Shown here piece by piece: positions 8,192-14,647 of a stretch of DNA of 20,000 nucleotides (its first letter is position 1; the number at the start of each line of letters is the position of its first letter). The stretch is from an uncultured virus (IMG/VR IMGVR_UViG_3300020454_000007) (taxonomy: Duplodnaviria; Heunggongvirae; Uroviricota; Caudoviricetes). Made by a program: the position numbers and the translations under genes. The stretch is from IMG/VR virus record IMGVR_UViG_3300020454_000007; one strand, given 5' to 3'. The notes under the pieces are model-generated. The model was not told the origin of the DNA. It did not search any database and saw only the letters and a program-made list of their open reading frames with translations.

Positions 8192-8638
8192 ATGGGTATA
8201 CCGGACGATTGGGGAGAACTGCTCTTCAATCTAAACTGCCTCTCTAAAGGCAGTGCTAAGCGGCAATTCCGGCACGCTATCCGTTACGCTTGGGGCGGTA
8301 TGTGTTGTTTCTGCAGAGATCAAAGAGCAACGACCGTAGACCATTTACGTCCGCGTTCCCGAGGTGGTTCCGATTTAAGATCCAATCTCGTTCCGTGTTG
8401 CCATAGCTGCAATCAAGACAAAGGAAGTCAAGATTGGCTAGTGTGGTTTAAACAACAAGACTTCTATAACGAAGTTGCGGAAGAGTTAATTGTTGAATGG
8501 ATTGAGAATCGTAATTATGTCGCAACAGTATCCAACGAAACTAACGCTAGAGCAGCGCTTCGCCATGTCGAGGGCTCGCTACGAAGTATCGAAGATGAGC
8601 CGTCCTGCGCTGGAAAAGACTGCCTTGCGCCTGCTTAA
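8192..8638 (+). CDS. HNH endonuclease (McrA/HNH_5-like)
   Basis: CCFC...TVDHLRPRSRGGSDLRSNLVPCCHSCNQDKG. Confidence 0.88.
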   Translation: MGIPDDWGELLFNLNCLSKGSAKRQFRHAIRYAWGGMCCFCRDQRATTVDHLRPRSRGGSDLRSNLVPCCHSCNQDKGSQDWLVWFKQQDFYNEVAEELIVEWIENRNYVATVSNETNARAALRHVEGSLRSIEDEPSCAGKDCLAPA

Positions 8639-8861
8639 AACCCGTATGGAGCAGAAGAACGGTATGCAGCACACACTTGCTGCTAACGGCATCCTTATTA
8701 AAGTTGAAGAGAACGGTAATGGTTTACCGGAGATTATGTCCGAGGAGACCTTTATGGACCTGCTGATTATGCAGGAAGAAGAGGATGAGATGCCTCTCGA
8801 TATTGAAGACGAAGGCTGGGAAAACGAAGACTTAGACGACGATGGCCTCACATTTGTGTAA
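8517..8861 (+). CDS. nblA: NblA-like phycobilisome degradation protein with acidic C-terminal extension
   Basis: From ATG 8517: LTLEQRF...VSKMSRPALEKTALRLLKTRMEQKN resembles the NblA pattern L(S/T)LEQxF...VxxMSREQ...L...xN. It is followed by a D/E-rich tail. Confidence 0.65.
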   Translation: MSQQYPTKLTLEQRFAMSRARYEVSKMSRPALEKTALRLLKTRMEQKNGMQHTLAANGILIKVEENGNGLPEIMSEETFMDLLIMQEEEDEMPLDIEDEGWENEDLDDDGLTFV

Positions 8862-8899: not shown

Positions 8900-9133
8900 A
8901 TGCCAATTGAAGCAATAGTTGGTCCTATCCTTGCGTTAGTCGTGTCAATGAAGTTCACTAAGTACACGGATGACGAGCGCAAGAAGAATCTGGTTATGGA
9001 GATAGATGCACTTCGAGCCGAGATGGTGGTTAAAACTCAACAGGAACATGCAGAGCTTGCCAAGAAGATGCTAATCACTGTCAGTCCTATGGCTAAAGCA
9101 CTTCGAGAATTGAAGGAAACTCTCGGCGTATAA
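8900..9133 (+). CDS. Hypothetical protein with N-terminal hydrophobic segment
   Basis: 77 aa, ATG start, fits the gene packing. Confidence 0.65.
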   Translation: MPIEAIVGPILALVVSMKFTKYTDDERKKNLVMEIDALRAEMVVKTQQEHAELAKKMLITVSPMAKALRELKETLGV

Positions 9134-9158
9134 TAGGGAAAGCAGAGTATAGATAGCG

Positions 9159-9452
9159 TTGGCAAATCTTAGAAACAAACCAATTGACAAGCGCTATCTT
9201 TCCCCACGGGATCGCTCTTCTGTAAGTAACAGGAGAGCTACAGCTCTTGCACGTACAAAGGCACGGCGCGGTCAAGCTGCGTATGAGTACAGTCGGCCTA
9301 AAAAATCTACTAAAAAGTACAGCGGTAGTAACGCATTCGCTCCAGGCATTAGAGCGCAGCAAGCTCGTATGAAGCAATTGTCTGCGGATAAGCAAAGGGC
9401 AGAGAGTTTACGGCCAGAAAAGGTTGCTTCTATAAATACAATCTATTCTTGA
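9159..9452 (+). CDS. Basic hypothetical protein
   Basis: 97 aa, R/K-rich, TTG start; fills the gap before the terminator region. Confidence 0.5.
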   Translation: MANLRNKPIDKRYLSPRDRSSVSNRRATALARTKARRGQAAYEYSRPKKSTKKYSGSNAFAPGIRAQQARMKQLSADKQRAESLRPEKVASINTIYS

Positions 9453-9500
9453 AAACAAACTTTTAATAAGAGAAATCCTTATTAAAGGTTTGAAAGAAGT

Positions 9501-9525
9501 AAAAAAATAGCCCGCGTTAGCGGGC
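9501..9525 (-). terminator. Rho-independent terminator for the psbA strand
   Basis: Hairpin GCCCGC-GTTA-GCGGGC (9510-9525) followed on the - strand by TATTTTTTT. Confidence 0.75.
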
Positions 9526-9566
9526 CTTAAGTATTACATTGTGAAAGTAGTTAATTATATTTAGTA

Positions 9567-9986
9567 GTGAAAACCTGCACTAAGTGCGGGTCTACAAAAC
9601 CGGATACTGACTTCTATACATACGGGAAGAAAGGCAAGAGACACGGTTCATGTAAGACCTGCTATAAGAAAAGATCAAAAGAAGACAAGGTCAAGCAAGG
9701 GCGGCGACACCGTAAATCTGTTGAATTACGGTGGCAATACGGATTGTCAATAGAAGATTACGAGAGAATGATTGAACTGTGCGACAACAAATGTGAAATT
9801 TGTGGTGCACCTCCACCTACTAAAGGCAGAAAAAAGACCCTGTGCGTAGACCATTGCCACGACACAGGGATTGTTAGGGGGTTGCTCTGCGACAAGTGCA
9901 ACAGAGCTATTGGACTTATAGGAGAAGACCATCAGACTTTGCTGAAAGCTATCCAATACTTGGCGCGGTCAAGGCCACTTCAGTAG
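9567..9986 (+). CDS. Endonuclease VII-family free-standing homing endonuclease (F-CphI-like)
   Basis: N-terminal CTKC...[45 protein letters not shown]. It overlaps the psbA 3' end by 38 bp. Confidence 0.88.
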
Positions 9987-11028
9987 AGCTGGCAGAAGCC
10001 AGATCAAGTGGAAAGTTATGTGCGTTCCTCTCATGGATCACCTCTAGACCGAGATTTGCTCCGTTTAGAACGTCAGCCCAGCTGTTGATAGGGCGACTTT
10101 GGGCATCCAGAATTGACTGGTTATTGTTAATGCCATTTAAATTGAACGCCATAGTAGATACTCCAAGGGAAGTAAACCAAATGCCCAGGACGGGCCAAGC
10201 AGCAAGGAAAAAATGAAGACTACGACTATTATTGAACGAAGCATATTGGAAAATAAGTCGTCCGAAATAACCGTGCGCCGCAACGATGTTATACGTTTCT
10301 TCTTCCTGTCCAAACTTGTAGCCATAGTTCTGTGAAACCGTTTCAGTGGTCTCACGAACAAGGGAGGACGTGACCAAAGATCCGTGCATAGCACTGAACA
10401 GCGCCCCACCGAACACGCCAGCAACTCCGAGCATATGAAAGGGATGCATAAGAATATTGTGCTCAGCCTGGAATACCAACATAAAGTTGAAGGTACCGCT
10501 AATCCCCAACGGCATACCGTCAGAAAAAGAGCCTTGTCCAAACGGATATACAAGGAATACCGCTGAAGCTGCGGCAACGGGGGCAGAATATGCAACACAA
10601 ATCCAGGGCCTCATCCCTAATCGATAGCTAAGTTCCCATTCGCGTCCCAGGTAAGCAAAGATGCCAATGAGGAAGTGGAAGACGACAAGCTGATATGGCC
10701 CGCCGTTGTAGAGCCATTCGTCAAGTGAAGCAGCTTCCCAAATTGGATAGAAATGTAGTCCGATTGCATTGCTGCTTGGGACGACAGCTCCTGAGATGAT
10801 GTTGTTTCCGTACATAATTGAGCCGGAAACTGGTTCTCTGATGCCATCGATATCTACCGGGGGTGCTGCAACGAATGCTGTGATAAAGCAGATTGCTGCT
10901 GCTAACAGTGTGGGGATCATTAATACACCGAACCAACCGACGTAAAGACGGTTGTTGGTGGATGTTACCCACTCACAAAAAGATTCCCAGTTATTACGGG
11001 ACTGGGTACCCGAGATCATTGTAGTCAT
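9949..11028 (-). CDS. psbA: Photosystem II D1 protein
   Basis: 359 aa; [40 protein letters not shown]. No intron; E at position 130; C-terminal extension after A344. Confidence 0.99.
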
Positions 11029-11137
11029 TATTAAGACGTGATTTGTTTACGGGTATTACTCAGCGTTCTCACGCCTACTTTACTATCTTAGGTCAGTAAA
11101 TTCTCACATAGGGGATATTCACTTAAAAAAGTGCAAT

Positions 11138-11199: not shown

Positions 11200-11493
11200 T
11201 TATTCACCAGGAAAGTCGCGGGGTCTAGGTGTTGTTTCTTCCGTACTAAAGTCAACACCTTGTCCCGCATTATCAGTCGAGGGAGAGCCTTCGTTACATG
11301 CTTCAGTACGTTGAAATGTAACGCGCTTATACCTGTTTTTAAAAACATCAGGTATCCAGTGTACTTCTATCCAATCAATTGTTGGATTAAGTTCTCTATG
11401 CCTCTCGATACTGTGTGAATGAATACCTGTCTGAATGTAACCGTCATGTGATATGCAGCGGTCACGAAATCTGTATAGGTATAACGTCTTCAC
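11200..11493 (-). CDS. Hypothetical protein co-transcribed with the riboswitch-controlled peptide
   Basis: 97 aa; GTG start overlaps the upstream stop (GTGA) and the ORF ends just before a terminator. Confidence 0.6.
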   Translation of the reverse strand: MKTLYLYRFRDRCISHDGYIQTGIHSHSIERHRELNPTIDWIEVHWIPDVFKNRYKRVTFQRTEACNEGSPSTDNAGQGVDFSTEETTPRPRDFPGE

Positions 11494-11654
11494 TTGGTAT
11501 AGGTAACTCCTCTGTAAGTATAAGAACCGTGGGGTTCTGTGCGCTGCCAGTTATAAGAAACAGGCACACCGCGATAGGCAGTATGAGAAAGTTGCGCACG
11601 ACGAGTTGCTTCCGCCTTTTCGATTTGGCGCTTGATGATTGAGAGTGTGTTCAT
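11490..11654 (-). CDS. 54-aa DUF4278-like YRGV peptide (not in ORF track)
   Basis: MNTLSIIKRQIEKAEATRRAQLSHTAYRGVPVSYNWQRTEPHGSYTYRGVTYTK, with two YRGV motifs and GGAG 6 nt before the ATG. Confidence 0.85.
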   Translation of the reverse strand: MNTLSIIKRQIEKAEATRRAQLSHTAYRGVPVSYNWQRTEPHGSYTYRGVTYTK

Positions 11655-11683
11655 TGGAAACTCCATAGTTAAGTGAAATTTCC

Positions 11684-11734
11684 CGTTCCTTCGGACTCTG
11701 TCCTACTTGCGTCCCCTCTGCGGGGATGAACGAT
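11684..11734 (-). ncRNA. Glutamine riboswitch (glnA RNA class)
   Basis: On the - strand: ATCGTTC-A-TCCCC-GCAGA-GGGGA-CGCAAGTA-GGAC-AGA-GTCC-GAAG-GAACG. P1 is CGTTC/GAACG, P2 is TCCCC/GGGGA, the E-loop is AGTA/GAA and P3 is GGAC/GTCC. It sits in the 5' UTR of a YRGV peptide. Confidence 0.85.
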
Positions 11735-11943: not shown

Positions 11944-13260
11944 TCAATGGGTGTCAGACCAGCTCACGCCTTTGTCGGCGGATGCTGTGATGGGCACTTT
12001 AAAGTTGTAGTGTTTACCGGCAAGAGGCGCTGCCTCAACCAAGATTCTTGCAAGGCGATCAGCTTCGCTCGGTATGACTGAGAATTGTTGTTCATCGTGT
12101 ACGTAGGCGCAACGGGTATAGTCTTTGTTGTAAGTTAAGCCGGTATTATCTATCATATCTTGTGAAATAACACACCAACGCTTACTTAGAATCGCTCCAG
12201 CTGATTGAAGCAAGAAGTTGATAGCACTGTGTTCTGCACGTACAAAGATAGGACGCCTGTCTAAGCCCTTCAGCTGCCCCTCACGGCGAGCCTTTTGCTT
12301 GACAGCTTCTACCAGTGGTTCAAGTCCGGGAATAGCATCCAGGAACTTTCTACGCAGCTCTCCGCCAAGGGAGCGTTTGGCTGCATCTGATAGAGCAGGG
12401 TCCATCGTATGGCCCAACTTTAGGTCGCCAGCGCCATAGATAAAGGCATAGGTCAGCGACTTCACCTCCTTGCGGCTGCATCCCACACGGTCAGCGTTCT
12501 GCTGGTGGATGTCACCATTGATGACAACGTCAGCAAAAGAGCCACCGTCAAACCTGCTGAGGTAGTGACCAAGGCAACGCAGCTCCAGACCTTCAAGGTC
12601 ACAGCCAACCATTACGTGTCCGGCGTGCGGAACAAATAGTTTCCGTGCCCACGGTGCACTCACAACCTGTCCCAAATTTGGACCCCGATGCGCGTTCCTA
12701 CCCGTGACTGTTGCAAGGGAGCAGCTGTGGTGAATGCAGCCATCGCCCTCAATAGAGTTGAACCAAGAGTTGGTTCCCTCCGATAGCTGACCCAACCACT
12801 TCTGTAATTGCAGCAGCTTGATAAACAACTCGCACTGATCGTGAAGAGGTTGATTACCTTGCTGTAGTGCAGTGTCCTTTAGCTCCGACAGGGTGGCTTC
12901 ATCGACTTTGGGTTTGCCAGTGTCGGTGGTTTTAGTGAAGCGAGCACCCTGGTGGTTTTGTAGAGCCCAGGCAATGTGTTGACGGGAGGTCGGGTTGAAT
13001 TCCGTAAGCCTGGTCATCGGTGAGCCAGAGACATAGCCGTTCTTCTTGTCATTCCGCTTAGGTGTGAACACCTTGCCCGGTATGTAAAGGTACTTAGCTT
13101 TGATCTGGTTAGAGAGTTCGTCAAACTCGTCCTGCAGTTGTTGCCTGACTTCAGTGGCTGCGTTCATATCGAACTTGAAGCCTGATGTCTCCTGGTCCGC
13201 CATAAGGCAGGCCATTCGCATCTCCAGGGCAACGCAATCCGGTAGCTTCATCATCATCAT
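11944..13260 (-). CDS. polA: Family A DNA polymerase, polymerase domain only (T7-like)
   Basis: FNPTSRQHI, ATVTGRNAH, motif A DLEGLELR, motif B RKEVKSLTYAFIYG, motif C VHDE. Start is one of four tandem ATGs at 13260-13249. Confidence 0.93.
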   Translation of the reverse strand: MMMMKLPDCVALEMRMACLMADQETSGFKFDMNAATEVRQQLQDEFDELSNQIKAKYLYIPGKVFTPKRNDKKNGYVSGSPMTRLTEFNPTSRQHIAWALQNHQGARFTKTTDTGKPKVDEATLSELKDTALQQGNQPLHDQCELFIKLLQLQKWLGQLSEGTNSWFNSIEGDGCIHHSCSLATVTGRNAHRGPNLGQVVSAPWARKLFVPHAGHVMVGCDLEGLELRCLGHYLSRFDGGSFADVVINGDIHQQNADRVGCSRKEVKSLTYAFIYGAGDLKLGHTMDPALSDAAKRSLGGELRRKFLDAIPGLEPLVEAVKQKARREGQLKGLDRRPIFVRAEHSAINFLLQSAGAILSKRWCVISQDMIDNTGLTYNKDYTRCAYVHDEQQFSVIPSEADRLARILVEAAPLAGKHYNFKVPITASADKGVSWSDTH

Positions 13261-13372
13261 CGTCAAATATGAATTCGTAAGTTGTACTGTCTGGTTGATA
13301 GCTCAGACGGAGCCAATTGACTGGACAATCGTCCAGCCACTGTTCAAATAAAGCTCTATTCATCGTTGTCAT
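13151..13372 (-). CDS. Small hypothetical protein overlapping the polymerase start
   Basis: FEQWLDDCPVNW...YEFIFDDDDDE, coupled to the upstream ORF; the last ~35 codons run inside polA in another frame. Confidence 0.5.
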   Translation of the reverse strand: MTTMNRALFEQWLDDCPVNWLRLSYQPDSTTYEFIFDDDDDEATGLRCPGDANGLPYGGPGDIRLQVRYERSH

Positions 13373-13574
13373 TAATAAAACCGATACCCATGGGGCTTGC
13401 TTTCGTGTCAGAACGCTTCTTCATTACAAGAGCGCCCAGTGATTTCATTACAGCTAGTACGTCTTCGGCTTTAGCGCCAGTACCTAGCTGCTTCTTTACG
13501 TAGTTGTACTTCTCGAAAAATTCAGGTCCGATGTCTTGGTAGTCCTCAAGTGTGATCTCTTTGTTCTTACTCAT
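13356..13574 (-). CDS. Hypothetical protein
   Basis: 72 aa, overlaps the exonuclease stop, ends ...PMGIGF. Confidence 0.7.
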   Translation of the reverse strand: MSKNKEITLEDYQDIGPEFFEKYNYVKKQLGTGAKAEDVLAVMKSLGALVMKKRSDTKASPMGIGFINDNDE

Positions 13575-14088
13575 AGTCTTTCATTCTCCTGAGCATAAGC
13601 TCAAATAGTTTTACGGTTACTTGTGTGTCTTGGATGCAGTAGTCGAGCATCTCAGGGGTGTAGGTGGCCCAGTCATTGGTCTCACCAAAGTCGCCTTTGT
13701 AGCAACGCAGGCGGAAGCCCCACGCCTTGAGGCTGTGTGAGCCATAGAGCTTTGCAGGCATACCTGATGGTTTGCGCTCAAAGTCTTTGTCTTTGATGTT
13801 CGGATAGAACAGTCGGCTAAGGACAAGCGTGTCGATTAGCTCACCTTGAAAGTCAAAGTTGTACTGCTCTTTGATTAGAGGTATGTCATAGGAAATGATG
13901 TTGTGACCAATCAGCGCATGAGAGTTACGCAGTTGATCAATGCCCATCTCCAGCGTCTGATCTTCACGATGGTCATAGACCATTGCGTCGTCAGGACTCT
14001 GCATATCGCGAGCGACGATGCAGTGAATACGAGAGCCTCTCCTGAGTAAGCCAGTGCTCTCAATGTCAAACAGAAGTGTTGAATTCAT
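13567..14088 (-). CDS. Stand-alone 3'-5' exonuclease domain of family A DNA polymerase
   Basis: From ATG 14088: FDIESTGL (ExoI), GHNIISYDIP (ExoII), DTLVLSRL, SHSLKAWG, YCIQDT (ExoIII). Confidence 0.92.
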   Translation of the reverse strand: MNSTLLFDIESTGLLRRGSRIHCIVARDMQSPDDAMVYDHREDQTLEMGIDQLRNSHALIGHNIISYDIPLIKEQYNFDFQGELIDTLVLSRLFYPNIKDKDFERKPSGMPAKLYGSHSLKAWGFRLRCYKGDFGETNDWATYTPEMLDYCIQDTQVTVKLFELMLRRMKDYE

Positions 14089-14647
14089 CTGAGTACTCTG
14101 TATGTTTCTCAATGTCAAAAGATTCTTCTTCAACCGGACTGCTCGTGTAGAGGTCTTTGTTTTGGAAGTGCTCTTCTTGGTTGTCGAAGCGGGGGGATTG
14201 ATTGTTTGTGCTGAATCTTTGATCTTCATCTTCCCAGTGTGGTTCAATTGATATTTGCAATTCGCGAGCCAGACGTGCTGCACGTCTAAACTCATCTTTG
14301 TAGTAGGGTTCCCACTCGTGAGCGAGAACAATCACCTTACGGATACCCATAAGGTGCAATTGAAATATAGCAGCGGAGAATGGATAACGGGTGGTATAAA
14401 CAACCGCACCTTGTAACGGTGTGCCTCTGCTAGCAGCGGTGCCTATTGCATAAGCAACGCAGTCAACTTCAACCTTGCAGGAAGCAAGGATGCTGCGGCC
14501 ATCACCAAGTATGTTTCGCTGTCGTACTAACACGCACCCACCGGGGGCGATGGGATGAGTCGAGCCTTCAGCGATGACTTTGGCCACGTTCATAAAATAT
14601 TTATCCTGATCAGTAATATGTGTTGGGTCACCTTTAATAATGGCCAT
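14066..14647 (-). CDS. dCMP deaminase-fold protein lacking Zn ligands
   Basis: DKYFMNVAKVIAEGST..GCVLV..G...AI...G..LQGAVVYTTRYP...GIRKV framework. HAE is replaced by DCV and PCxxC by PFSAA. Confidence 0.75.
   Translation of the reverse strand: MAIIKGDPTHITDQDKYFMNVAKVIAEGSTHPIAPGGCVLVRQRNILGDGRSILASCKVEVDCVAYAIGTAASRGTPLQGAVVYTTRYPFSAAIFQLHLMGIRKVIVLAHEWEPYYKDEFRRAARLARELQISIEPHWEDEDQRFSTNNQSPRFDNQEEHFQNKDLYTSSPVEEESFDIEKHTEYSDEFNTSV

Follow-up and report, generated by a model that had tools for sequence, protein, structure and literature searches.

Rare substitutions in the lumenal tail of a cyanophage D1 protein and their possible origin in conflict with psbA-targeting endonucleases

The DNA analysed here (the window, 20,000 nucleotides of the uncultured virus IMG/VR IMGVR_UViG_3300020454_000007) is part of an uncultured marine cyanophage genome, as judged by gene content and domain matches. 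It carries an intact, intron-free psbA gene for a D1 protein of 359 amino acids (9949..11028, minus strand), recognised as an open reading frame and by the NCBIfam equivalog. A gene for a free-standing Endo VII endonuclease of the DHHRN, F-CphI-like family (139 amino acids; 9567..9986, plus strand; Pfam PF02945, E = 1.7e-21) runs towards psbA and covers the last 38 bases of it, and just beyond this gene a terminator-like hairpin, identified by a consensus match only, lies on the psbA strand (9509..9526, minus strand). The family A DNA polymerase is split into an exonuclease (13567-14331, minus strand) and a polymerase (11944-13266, minus strand). Other genes of the window encode a VapE-like primase/helicase, an integrase, an HNH gene product, an NblA-like protein and tail proteins. 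Between 93 and 97% of the sampled window words were contained in six marine DNA runs from two studies; runs holding a small share of these words were left out of the habitat reading. RNA runs of the same samples contained next to none of the window words. One RNA contig (run X10) matched 10859-11078 with 0 differences at depth 6, which, as a single contig in a single run, is no evidence of transcription.

The closest cultured match of the polymerase shares 46% identity, and 80 IMG/VR relatives share 71-88%. In 36 of these relatives the locus reaches across the whole slot from the polymerase to the conserved downstream genes; psbA is present in two of them and a nuclease in one. The latter locus, L056 (= L182), belongs to a sister phage (DNA ~77% identical) with the same psbA-nuclease cassette, and it is the sole locus of the 36 in which a nuclease adjoins psbA in this slot. 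A second family member, L196, has both psbA and psbD in the same slot, with a canonical D1 tail and no Endo VII gene; psbA therefore probably entered this phage family more than once.

The psbA reading frame is uninterrupted by stop or frameshift, and an Rfam scan of the window found no intron family, so that a group I intron in psbA is absent. Its product scores 742 bits against the NCBIfam psbA equivalog (cut-off 596), follows standard D1 numbering (His at 332; ungapped alignments to solved D1 chains), reaches 90.8% identity with the best cultured cyanophage D1 and is 80-95% identical to 511 of 512 cultured phage records. Every Mn4CaO5 ligand is kept (D170, E189, H332, E333, H337, D342, A344), together with D61, Y161, H190, N298, D319, N322, E329, R334, N335, H252 and G256, bearing out the retention of the ligands, Y161 and H190 claimed in the original prediction. 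Atypical D1 proteins of Groups 1 and 2 are described in the available text of PMC4408414 as having lost one or more of these ligands, sharing 63-73% identity with standard D1 and carrying acceptor-side changes (an insertion at 253, W256, loss of H252), and Group 3 D1' as marked by A80, L158 and A286. We rejected Group 1 (super-rogue) and Group 2 (rogue) D1 for the window, given its complete ligands, 80-95% identity, ungapped alignment and retained H252 and G256. Group 3 was likewise rejected, the window D1 having G80, F158 and T286, which are the Group 4 states. What it has in common with Groups 1 and 2 and D1' is change in the lumenal segment at the C-terminus: L300 occurs in two genome-encoded rogue-like D1s, as it does in viral variants, and cellular D1'-like proteins have P313 and I331. 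Unlike atypical D1, it keeps all Mn4CaO5 ligands, E329, R334, N335, H252 and G256. The complete ligand set and the equivalog score are those of standard (Group 4) D1, and the best explanation of the sequence is a working, standard-type viral D1. The suggestion of an atypical viral D1 is thus unsupported as regards membership of an atypical group (ligands, G80, F158 and T286 are kept), but its second part, an altered donor side, may still apply, because F300, F302, R323, M328 and M331 line the YZ proton channel/PsbV contact region.

All eight substitutions first proposed were found in the translation at their proposed positions. They comprise F300I (ATT, 10131-10129) and F302N (AAT, 10125-10123) in codons 300-302 (10123..10131, minus strand); G311S, V313P and T316S in a variable loop of codons 311-316 (10081..10098, minus strand), G311S being common to the sister phage; R323G (GGA, 10062-10060; feature 10060..10062, minus strand), at a residue of the PsbV contact and YZ channel, its codon differing from AGA in the sister phage by a single A-to-G change; and M328L and M331I (ATC, 10038-10036) in codons 328-331 (10036..10047, minus strand). 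Single contigs of runs X1 (depth 52, 9000-10218) and X2 (depth 57, 9000-10221) cover both nuclease and cluster with 0 differing letters, and a short contig of run X7 (depth 3.7, 9987-10160) also shows 0 differing letters; this comparison drew on 4 of 24 listed runs, its longest pieces fall short of the full 2.8 kb, one of the three runs is possibly the source sample, and the two studies possibly belong to a single campaign. The exact D1 protein is found on 20 contigs. An assembly or sequencing error might be suspected from F302N, which was not found elsewhere, but the agreement among contigs of three runs from two studies and the 20 contigs with the exact protein make it extremely improbable; at the level of assembled contigs, such an error is excluded. 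The eight-change allele is real and fixed.

The rarity of these residues is uneven. Among 102 background viral D1s, Phe is present at 300 in 100 and at 302 in 99, and R323 and M331 are likewise conserved in 99-100; G311 (89/102) and V313 (91/102) are less so. The description of the replaced residues as near-invariant therefore holds for F300, F302, R323 and M331, less for G311 and V313, and not for M328. Seven residues of the window D1 are seen in at most 3% of the background, and six of them fall in codons 300-331 (binomial p = 9e-5), leaving one in codons 13-292. Among 329 distinct D1 segments from outside the window, some of which had been chosen for carrying variants, the counts of the window's residues are as follows: I300 2, N302 0, S311 10, P313 4, S316 15, G323 0, L328 26 and I331 7. 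The 126 readable database proteins contain G323 once and I300 twice. Seven of the eight changes thus occur in other D1s; Asn302 was not found in the 329 segments, in a completed pattern scan at codon 302 or in the 126 database proteins. That these residues might be common in cyanophage D1, which would have undermined the prediction, proved true for M328L and partly for T316S and G311S, but not for the other changes.

The complete scan for codons 302 with any second base but T returned 23 stretches (22 Tyr, one non-psbA, 0 Asn). A codon 300 not starting with T was found in at least 120 stretches of viral contigs, with 117 Leu, 2 Ile and 1 Met among the matches listed. The same scan of 185,579 species genomes gave 14 stretches, five of them D1-like: two rogue-like proteins, one copy from Synechococcus lacustris and two from bins that are not cyanobacterial. 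A phage-like psbA (L618, with L300, Y302 and V331) lies in a bin labelled Microbacteriaceae, where the contig is probably mis-binned. A peptide-derived pattern for the N298-Q304 variant matched 21 viral stretches, none of them psbA. Among the matches listed, D1-tail searches of viral and metagenome contigs contained no allele above 82% identity and a D1 protein search reached 81% at best. By amino-acid-changing distance from the background, the window tail ranks 6th of 189 distinct D1s; it is unusual, not unique.

Parts of the combination recur in other lineages. P313 occurs with I331 in the viral loci L021, L288 and L339 and in the cellular proteins P0035, P0036 and P0064, and I300, S316, L328 and I331 occur together in P0062 and P0094; the cellular proteins with P313 and I331 have A80 and L158, and the best solved match is annotated D1 2. 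Such recurrence would be expected if the tail had been imported by recombination from a rare D1 lineage, either a D1'-like cellular gene or a divergent phage allele. There is no close DNA donor, however: over codons 309-332 the best identity to 234 other full-length genes is 0.74 and the median 0.64, L021 lies outside the top eight by DNA identity over this stretch, and L021, L288 and L339 themselves adjoin nuclease-like genes. We consider import highly unlikely. Four viral D1s, L021, L476, L288 and L339, have strongly altered tails (N322G/R323K, N303Q or V, A336S/N338G, P340A), and three of the four directly adjoin GIY-YIG-like or Endo VII genes.

The nuclease beside psbA carries the catalytic residues D95, H96, H98, R104 and N112 and eight Zn cysteines. 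Among 94 homologs D95, H96, R104, N112 and seven of the eight cysteines are invariant, and C7 and H98 nearly so. Its predicted fold (pLDDT 94.6) best matches Hpy99I and T4 Endo VII, and it is 39.6% identical to F-CphI over 133 residues. The D-H-x-H...R...N motif with Zn cysteines and the optional, free-standing gene beside its target gene agree with the DHHRN family. The overlapping C-terminus is shared by homologs P0124 and P0125, and the last residues of P0126 would fit translation antisense to a D1 tail. The N-terminal half (9567-9776) is mosaic. Its first 35 residues agree with L056 at 33/35 positions (~92% in DNA), whereas residues 36-70 match L056 at 12/35 and P0126-P0129 at 21-24/35 (permutation p = 0.0005). 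The helix in the swapped part (residues 36-70) could not be established as the base reader. The available text of PMC2699513 assigns the major-groove contacts of Hpy99I to its first-repeat hairpin, which aligns elsewhere, weakly with residues ~16-28, in the part common to the sister phage. Used as a query, the window nuclease itself found 80 loci, none with psbA. Because the window psbA has no intron, an active nuclease would need some other protection of its own genome.

Since earlier rows had been partly selected by psbA state, we searched by nuclease instead, with an alignment of five clade members as the query; these five were first found beside variant psbA, and the search favours their kin. 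It yielded 61 loci, of which 48 had a readable psbA segment (of the remaining 13, one was cut off and twelve were weak matches). Residue 300 or 302 was non-Phe in 48 of these 48 loci, which form 19 clusters at 90%. Five solutions were seen: L300 in 33, Y302 in 11, W300 in 2, M300 in 1 and I300 with L302 in 1. Codon 300 was TTC in 0/48 clade loci versus 49/60 in the background, and silent shifts occurred at 296, 301 and 305. The IMG/VR loci L622-L670 belong to this Endo VII clade, and six loci also have Gly at 304. L496, a more distant clade member, retains F300 and F302. No cultured phage carries the clade: one search gave no match at 1e-25, and in another all matches were under 60% identity. 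The window nuclease lies outside the 48-locus clade, to which it is weakly sister (SH-aLRT 83, with long branches, in a quick tree). Its own group has two members with readable psbA, both changed at 302, and the sister phage L056 has TTT300/TAC302 (F302Y), a solution also seen in 11 of the 48 loci.

Counting neighbours from the psbA side gave a similar association. An Endo VII gene follows psbA in 24/40 variant clusters versus 8/62 canonical clusters (OR 10, p = 8e-7, uncorrected for kinship); the count used loci with at least 850 bases downstream, namely 68 of at least 120 from the codon 300 scan, 20/23 from the codon 302 scan and 71 of 120 canonical controls. A quick tree of 55 psbA-adjacent nucleases resolved a 20-row clade (SH-aLRT 99) with F300 or F302 replaced in 19, an 8-row clade (SH-aLRT 94) with L328, V331 or S331 in 7/8, and the F-CphI clade, in which most members have introns. 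A tree of psbA codons 101-292 was built from 41/48 rows (26 distinct; seven with very long branches, probably from upstream introns, were dropped). On it the nuclease changes state 12 times, and 5/5 supported independent pairs agree (p = 0.0625), a test that is unable to reach significance. Across 24 loci the correlation of psbA identity with nuclease identity is strongest in codons 293-308 (rho 0.61), lower in codons 309-344 (0.48) and lowest upstream (0.24-0.28). Such tracking of the nuclease by the psbA tail would follow from co-conversion that starts at a cut near codon 300.

Phe300 is also replaced away from such nucleases. No Endo VII neighbour was found in 16/34 F300-variant clusters; some of these loci have other nuclease-like genes (HNH, T5orf172, NUMOD3), many have none, and many of the loci lacking Endo VII are podovirus-like, with a capsid gene after psbA. 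Over the part of psbA upstream of the cluster, the closest relatives of the window gene are two of these loci, L268 and L278 (L300, no Endo VII), and F300I could thus go back to an ancestral L300. F300L in many nuclease-free phages would fit relaxed or drifting selection on an optional psbA, under which the lumenal tail tolerates change and rare residues accumulate regardless of any nuclease. The same reading could draw on the presence of psbA in only 2 of the 36 family loci, on the greater variability of D1 tails in general relative to the body (median pN ratio 1.6) and on P313 with I331 in cellular D1'-like proteins that have all ligands. To the sister phage, pN is 0.157 in codons 293-332, but codons 13-292, with their single rare residue, are under strong purifying selection (pN 0.054 versus pS 0.67). 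There is no stop, frameshift or ligand loss, and drift leaves the replacement of F300 or F302 in 48/48 clade loci unexplained. Relaxed selection is therefore an unlikely main cause.

The association with Endo VII genes extends to residue 331: Endo VII accompanies 8/12 cases with non-Met at 331 versus 39/219 otherwise (p = 4e-4). The links of L328/I328 (p = 0.11), non-R323 (p = 0.31) and P313 (p = 0.18) to Endo VII were not significant. F-CphI of Synechococcus phage S-PM2 is reported in the available text of PMC6083498 to cut intron-less psbA and to be blocked by the S-PM2 intron, and to act with the psbA group I intron in collaborative homing; its 60-bp substrate reads as D1 codons 325-344. 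The homologous stretch of the window (9997..10056, minus strand) contains M328L and M331I and the silent codons R334 AGG and F339 TTT, and silent R334 AGR and F339 TTT are enriched beside Endo VII genes. Y339 was seen three times in D1 segments, each time beside Endo VII. The silent-codon departure of the window peaks at codons 289-300 (1.43), slightly above codons 241-252 (1.20).

We propose that nuclease escape, in the form of intronless homing, is the main cause of the tail changes, with a probability of roughly 60% on the comparative sequence evidence. Of the two explanations offered in the original prediction, divergence driven by the adjoining endonuclease is the better supported, through the related nuclease clade. 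The 3' end of psbA would then owe its present form mainly to conflict with homing endonucleases that target this gene: a nuclease of Endo VII type, encoded by a free-standing gene, would cut the psbA of co-infecting phages and spread together with the psbA tail during repair, steps that have been shown for F-CphI in the literature and that we infer here by analogy. A carrier lacking a protective intron would have to hold an uncuttable psbA allele, and at a site over Phe (TTY) or Met (ATG) codons the room for silent change would be limited, so that amino acids change. By comparison with the related clade, the window nuclease probably reads codons ~296-305, placing the putative escape site at codons 300-302. 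F300I and F302N may be second steps from a TTT/TAY state like that of the sister phage; TTT to ATT and TAY to AAT are each one amino-acid-changing T-to-A step. These second steps possibly followed an exchange of part of the nuclease's DNA-binding region. M328L and M331I may be escapes at a second site, and for G311S, V313P, T316S and R323G, hitchhiking, compensation and escape from other nucleases are all candidate explanations. The escape reading is firmer for 300/302 and 331 than for 311-323, and the evidence suggests that at least some changes arose against self-cutting of psbA rather than for photosynthesis.

The changed residues also have structural roles. According to the available text of PMC11614991, F300 and F302 belong to a hydrophobic pocket, R323 belongs to a charged chain and M328 and M331 lie in a helix shielding the YZ proton channel (pathway II). 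Mutants at R323, N322, D319 and H304 are reported to retain 63-91% activity and lose PsbV (PMC9732884, in a passage citing Zhu et al. 2022). These placements, the loss of PsbV in R323 mutants within that set and the radical nature of several changes (Phe to Asn, Arg to Gly, Val to Pro) would suit adaptive donor-side remodelling, in which the phage modifies the YZ proton channel or the PsbV interface and so affects the oxygen evolution or PSII turnover of infected cells. About half of positions 300-332 are listed as channel in the available source, however, and 5/8 is near chance. The polar channel residues N298, D319 and N322 are unchanged, and the combination was present in no other lineage searched, although an adaptive D1 type would be expected to recur. 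We regard such adaptation as quite unlikely to be the main cause. Because the ligands and the protein body are conserved, the window D1 is most likely functional, with a somewhat weakened donor side.

Known homing systems offer partial precedents for nuclease escape. Like F-CphI, the window nuclease is free-standing, of Endo VII type and directly behind psbA, with catalytic residues kept, and M328L/M331I fall within the stretch homologous to the F-CphI substrate. Unlike F-CphI, it is encoded antisense to psbA with an overlap at the psbA end, beside an intron-less gene and in a phage outside the T4-like group; the putative site lies ~30 codons further upstream and protection would come from amino-acid change. 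Collaborative homing with a protective intron was rejected for the window, where the 359-codon reading frame is uninterrupted and no Rfam intron was found. Closer in this respect are T4 MobE, which is described in the available text of PMC2790892 as self-protected by a Lys/Arg polymorphism at its nrdB site, and the intronless homing of the free-standing T4 nucleases SegF and SegG (cited in PMC6083498), with which the window would share self-protection by target polymorphism and co-conversion of flanks. Homing nucleases that target codons for critical residues are reviewed in PMC2988022, as far as its available text goes. The difference from MobE is that the window nuclease is of another family and that its changes are several, partly radical, convergent across phages and at near-invariant D1 residues. 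The locus is best explained as intronless homing with a new aspect, namely that escape costs amino-acid changes at conserved D1 residues. Our literature search, in which subscription journals were mostly outside coverage, found no paper linking D1 F300/F302 replacement to a nuclease, and the main text of a 2026 preprint on cyanophage D1/D2 mentions no F300, F302, R323, M331, homing or endonuclease.

Where viral and host D1 differ, the usual interpretation is adaptation of photosynthesis during infection. Replacement of F300 and F302 in step with a selfish nuclease indicates that part of viral D1 diversity has a non-photosynthetic cause, and the escape reading predicts a new psbA cut site near codons 296-305. 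As an abundant natural allele (depth 52-57 in two marine runs), this D1 also probes which changes are tolerated by the YZ proton channel/PsbV interface. A bolder version, which we hold tentatively and at less than even odds, is that cyanophage D1 goes through round after round of amino-acid replacement, driven by homing endonucleases whose DNA-binding parts are reshuffled, the window representing a second round (302 Phe to Tyr to Asn, 300 Phe to Ile, 323 Arg to Gly) that alters water splitting. If true, the YZ-channel and PsbV-contact surface would have been pushed beyond anything in host D1, infected cells would split water measurably less, or differently, because of a selfish gene, and the 'viral-specific' diversity of the D1 tail would in large part be a scar of nuclease conflict, not photosynthetic adaptation.

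Several minor features of the window are shared with the phage family. Small genes sit between the exonuclease and polymerase reading frames (11944-14331, minus strand), and the same split recurs in relatives. The NblA-like reading frame (8490-8861, plus strand; 123 amino acids with an acidic tail), whose Pfam match (E = 4.9e-05) is below the cut-off, is conserved at 56-75% across the family. A glutamine riboswitch (11680-11734, minus strand; Rfam RF01739, 51 bits) lies directly upstream of a 58-amino-acid reading frame (11490-11666, minus strand) with two YRGV-like repeats. This frame has no match in Pfam or NCBIfam and has homologs in many family members, and it may resemble DUF4278/glutamine-synthetase inactivating factors.
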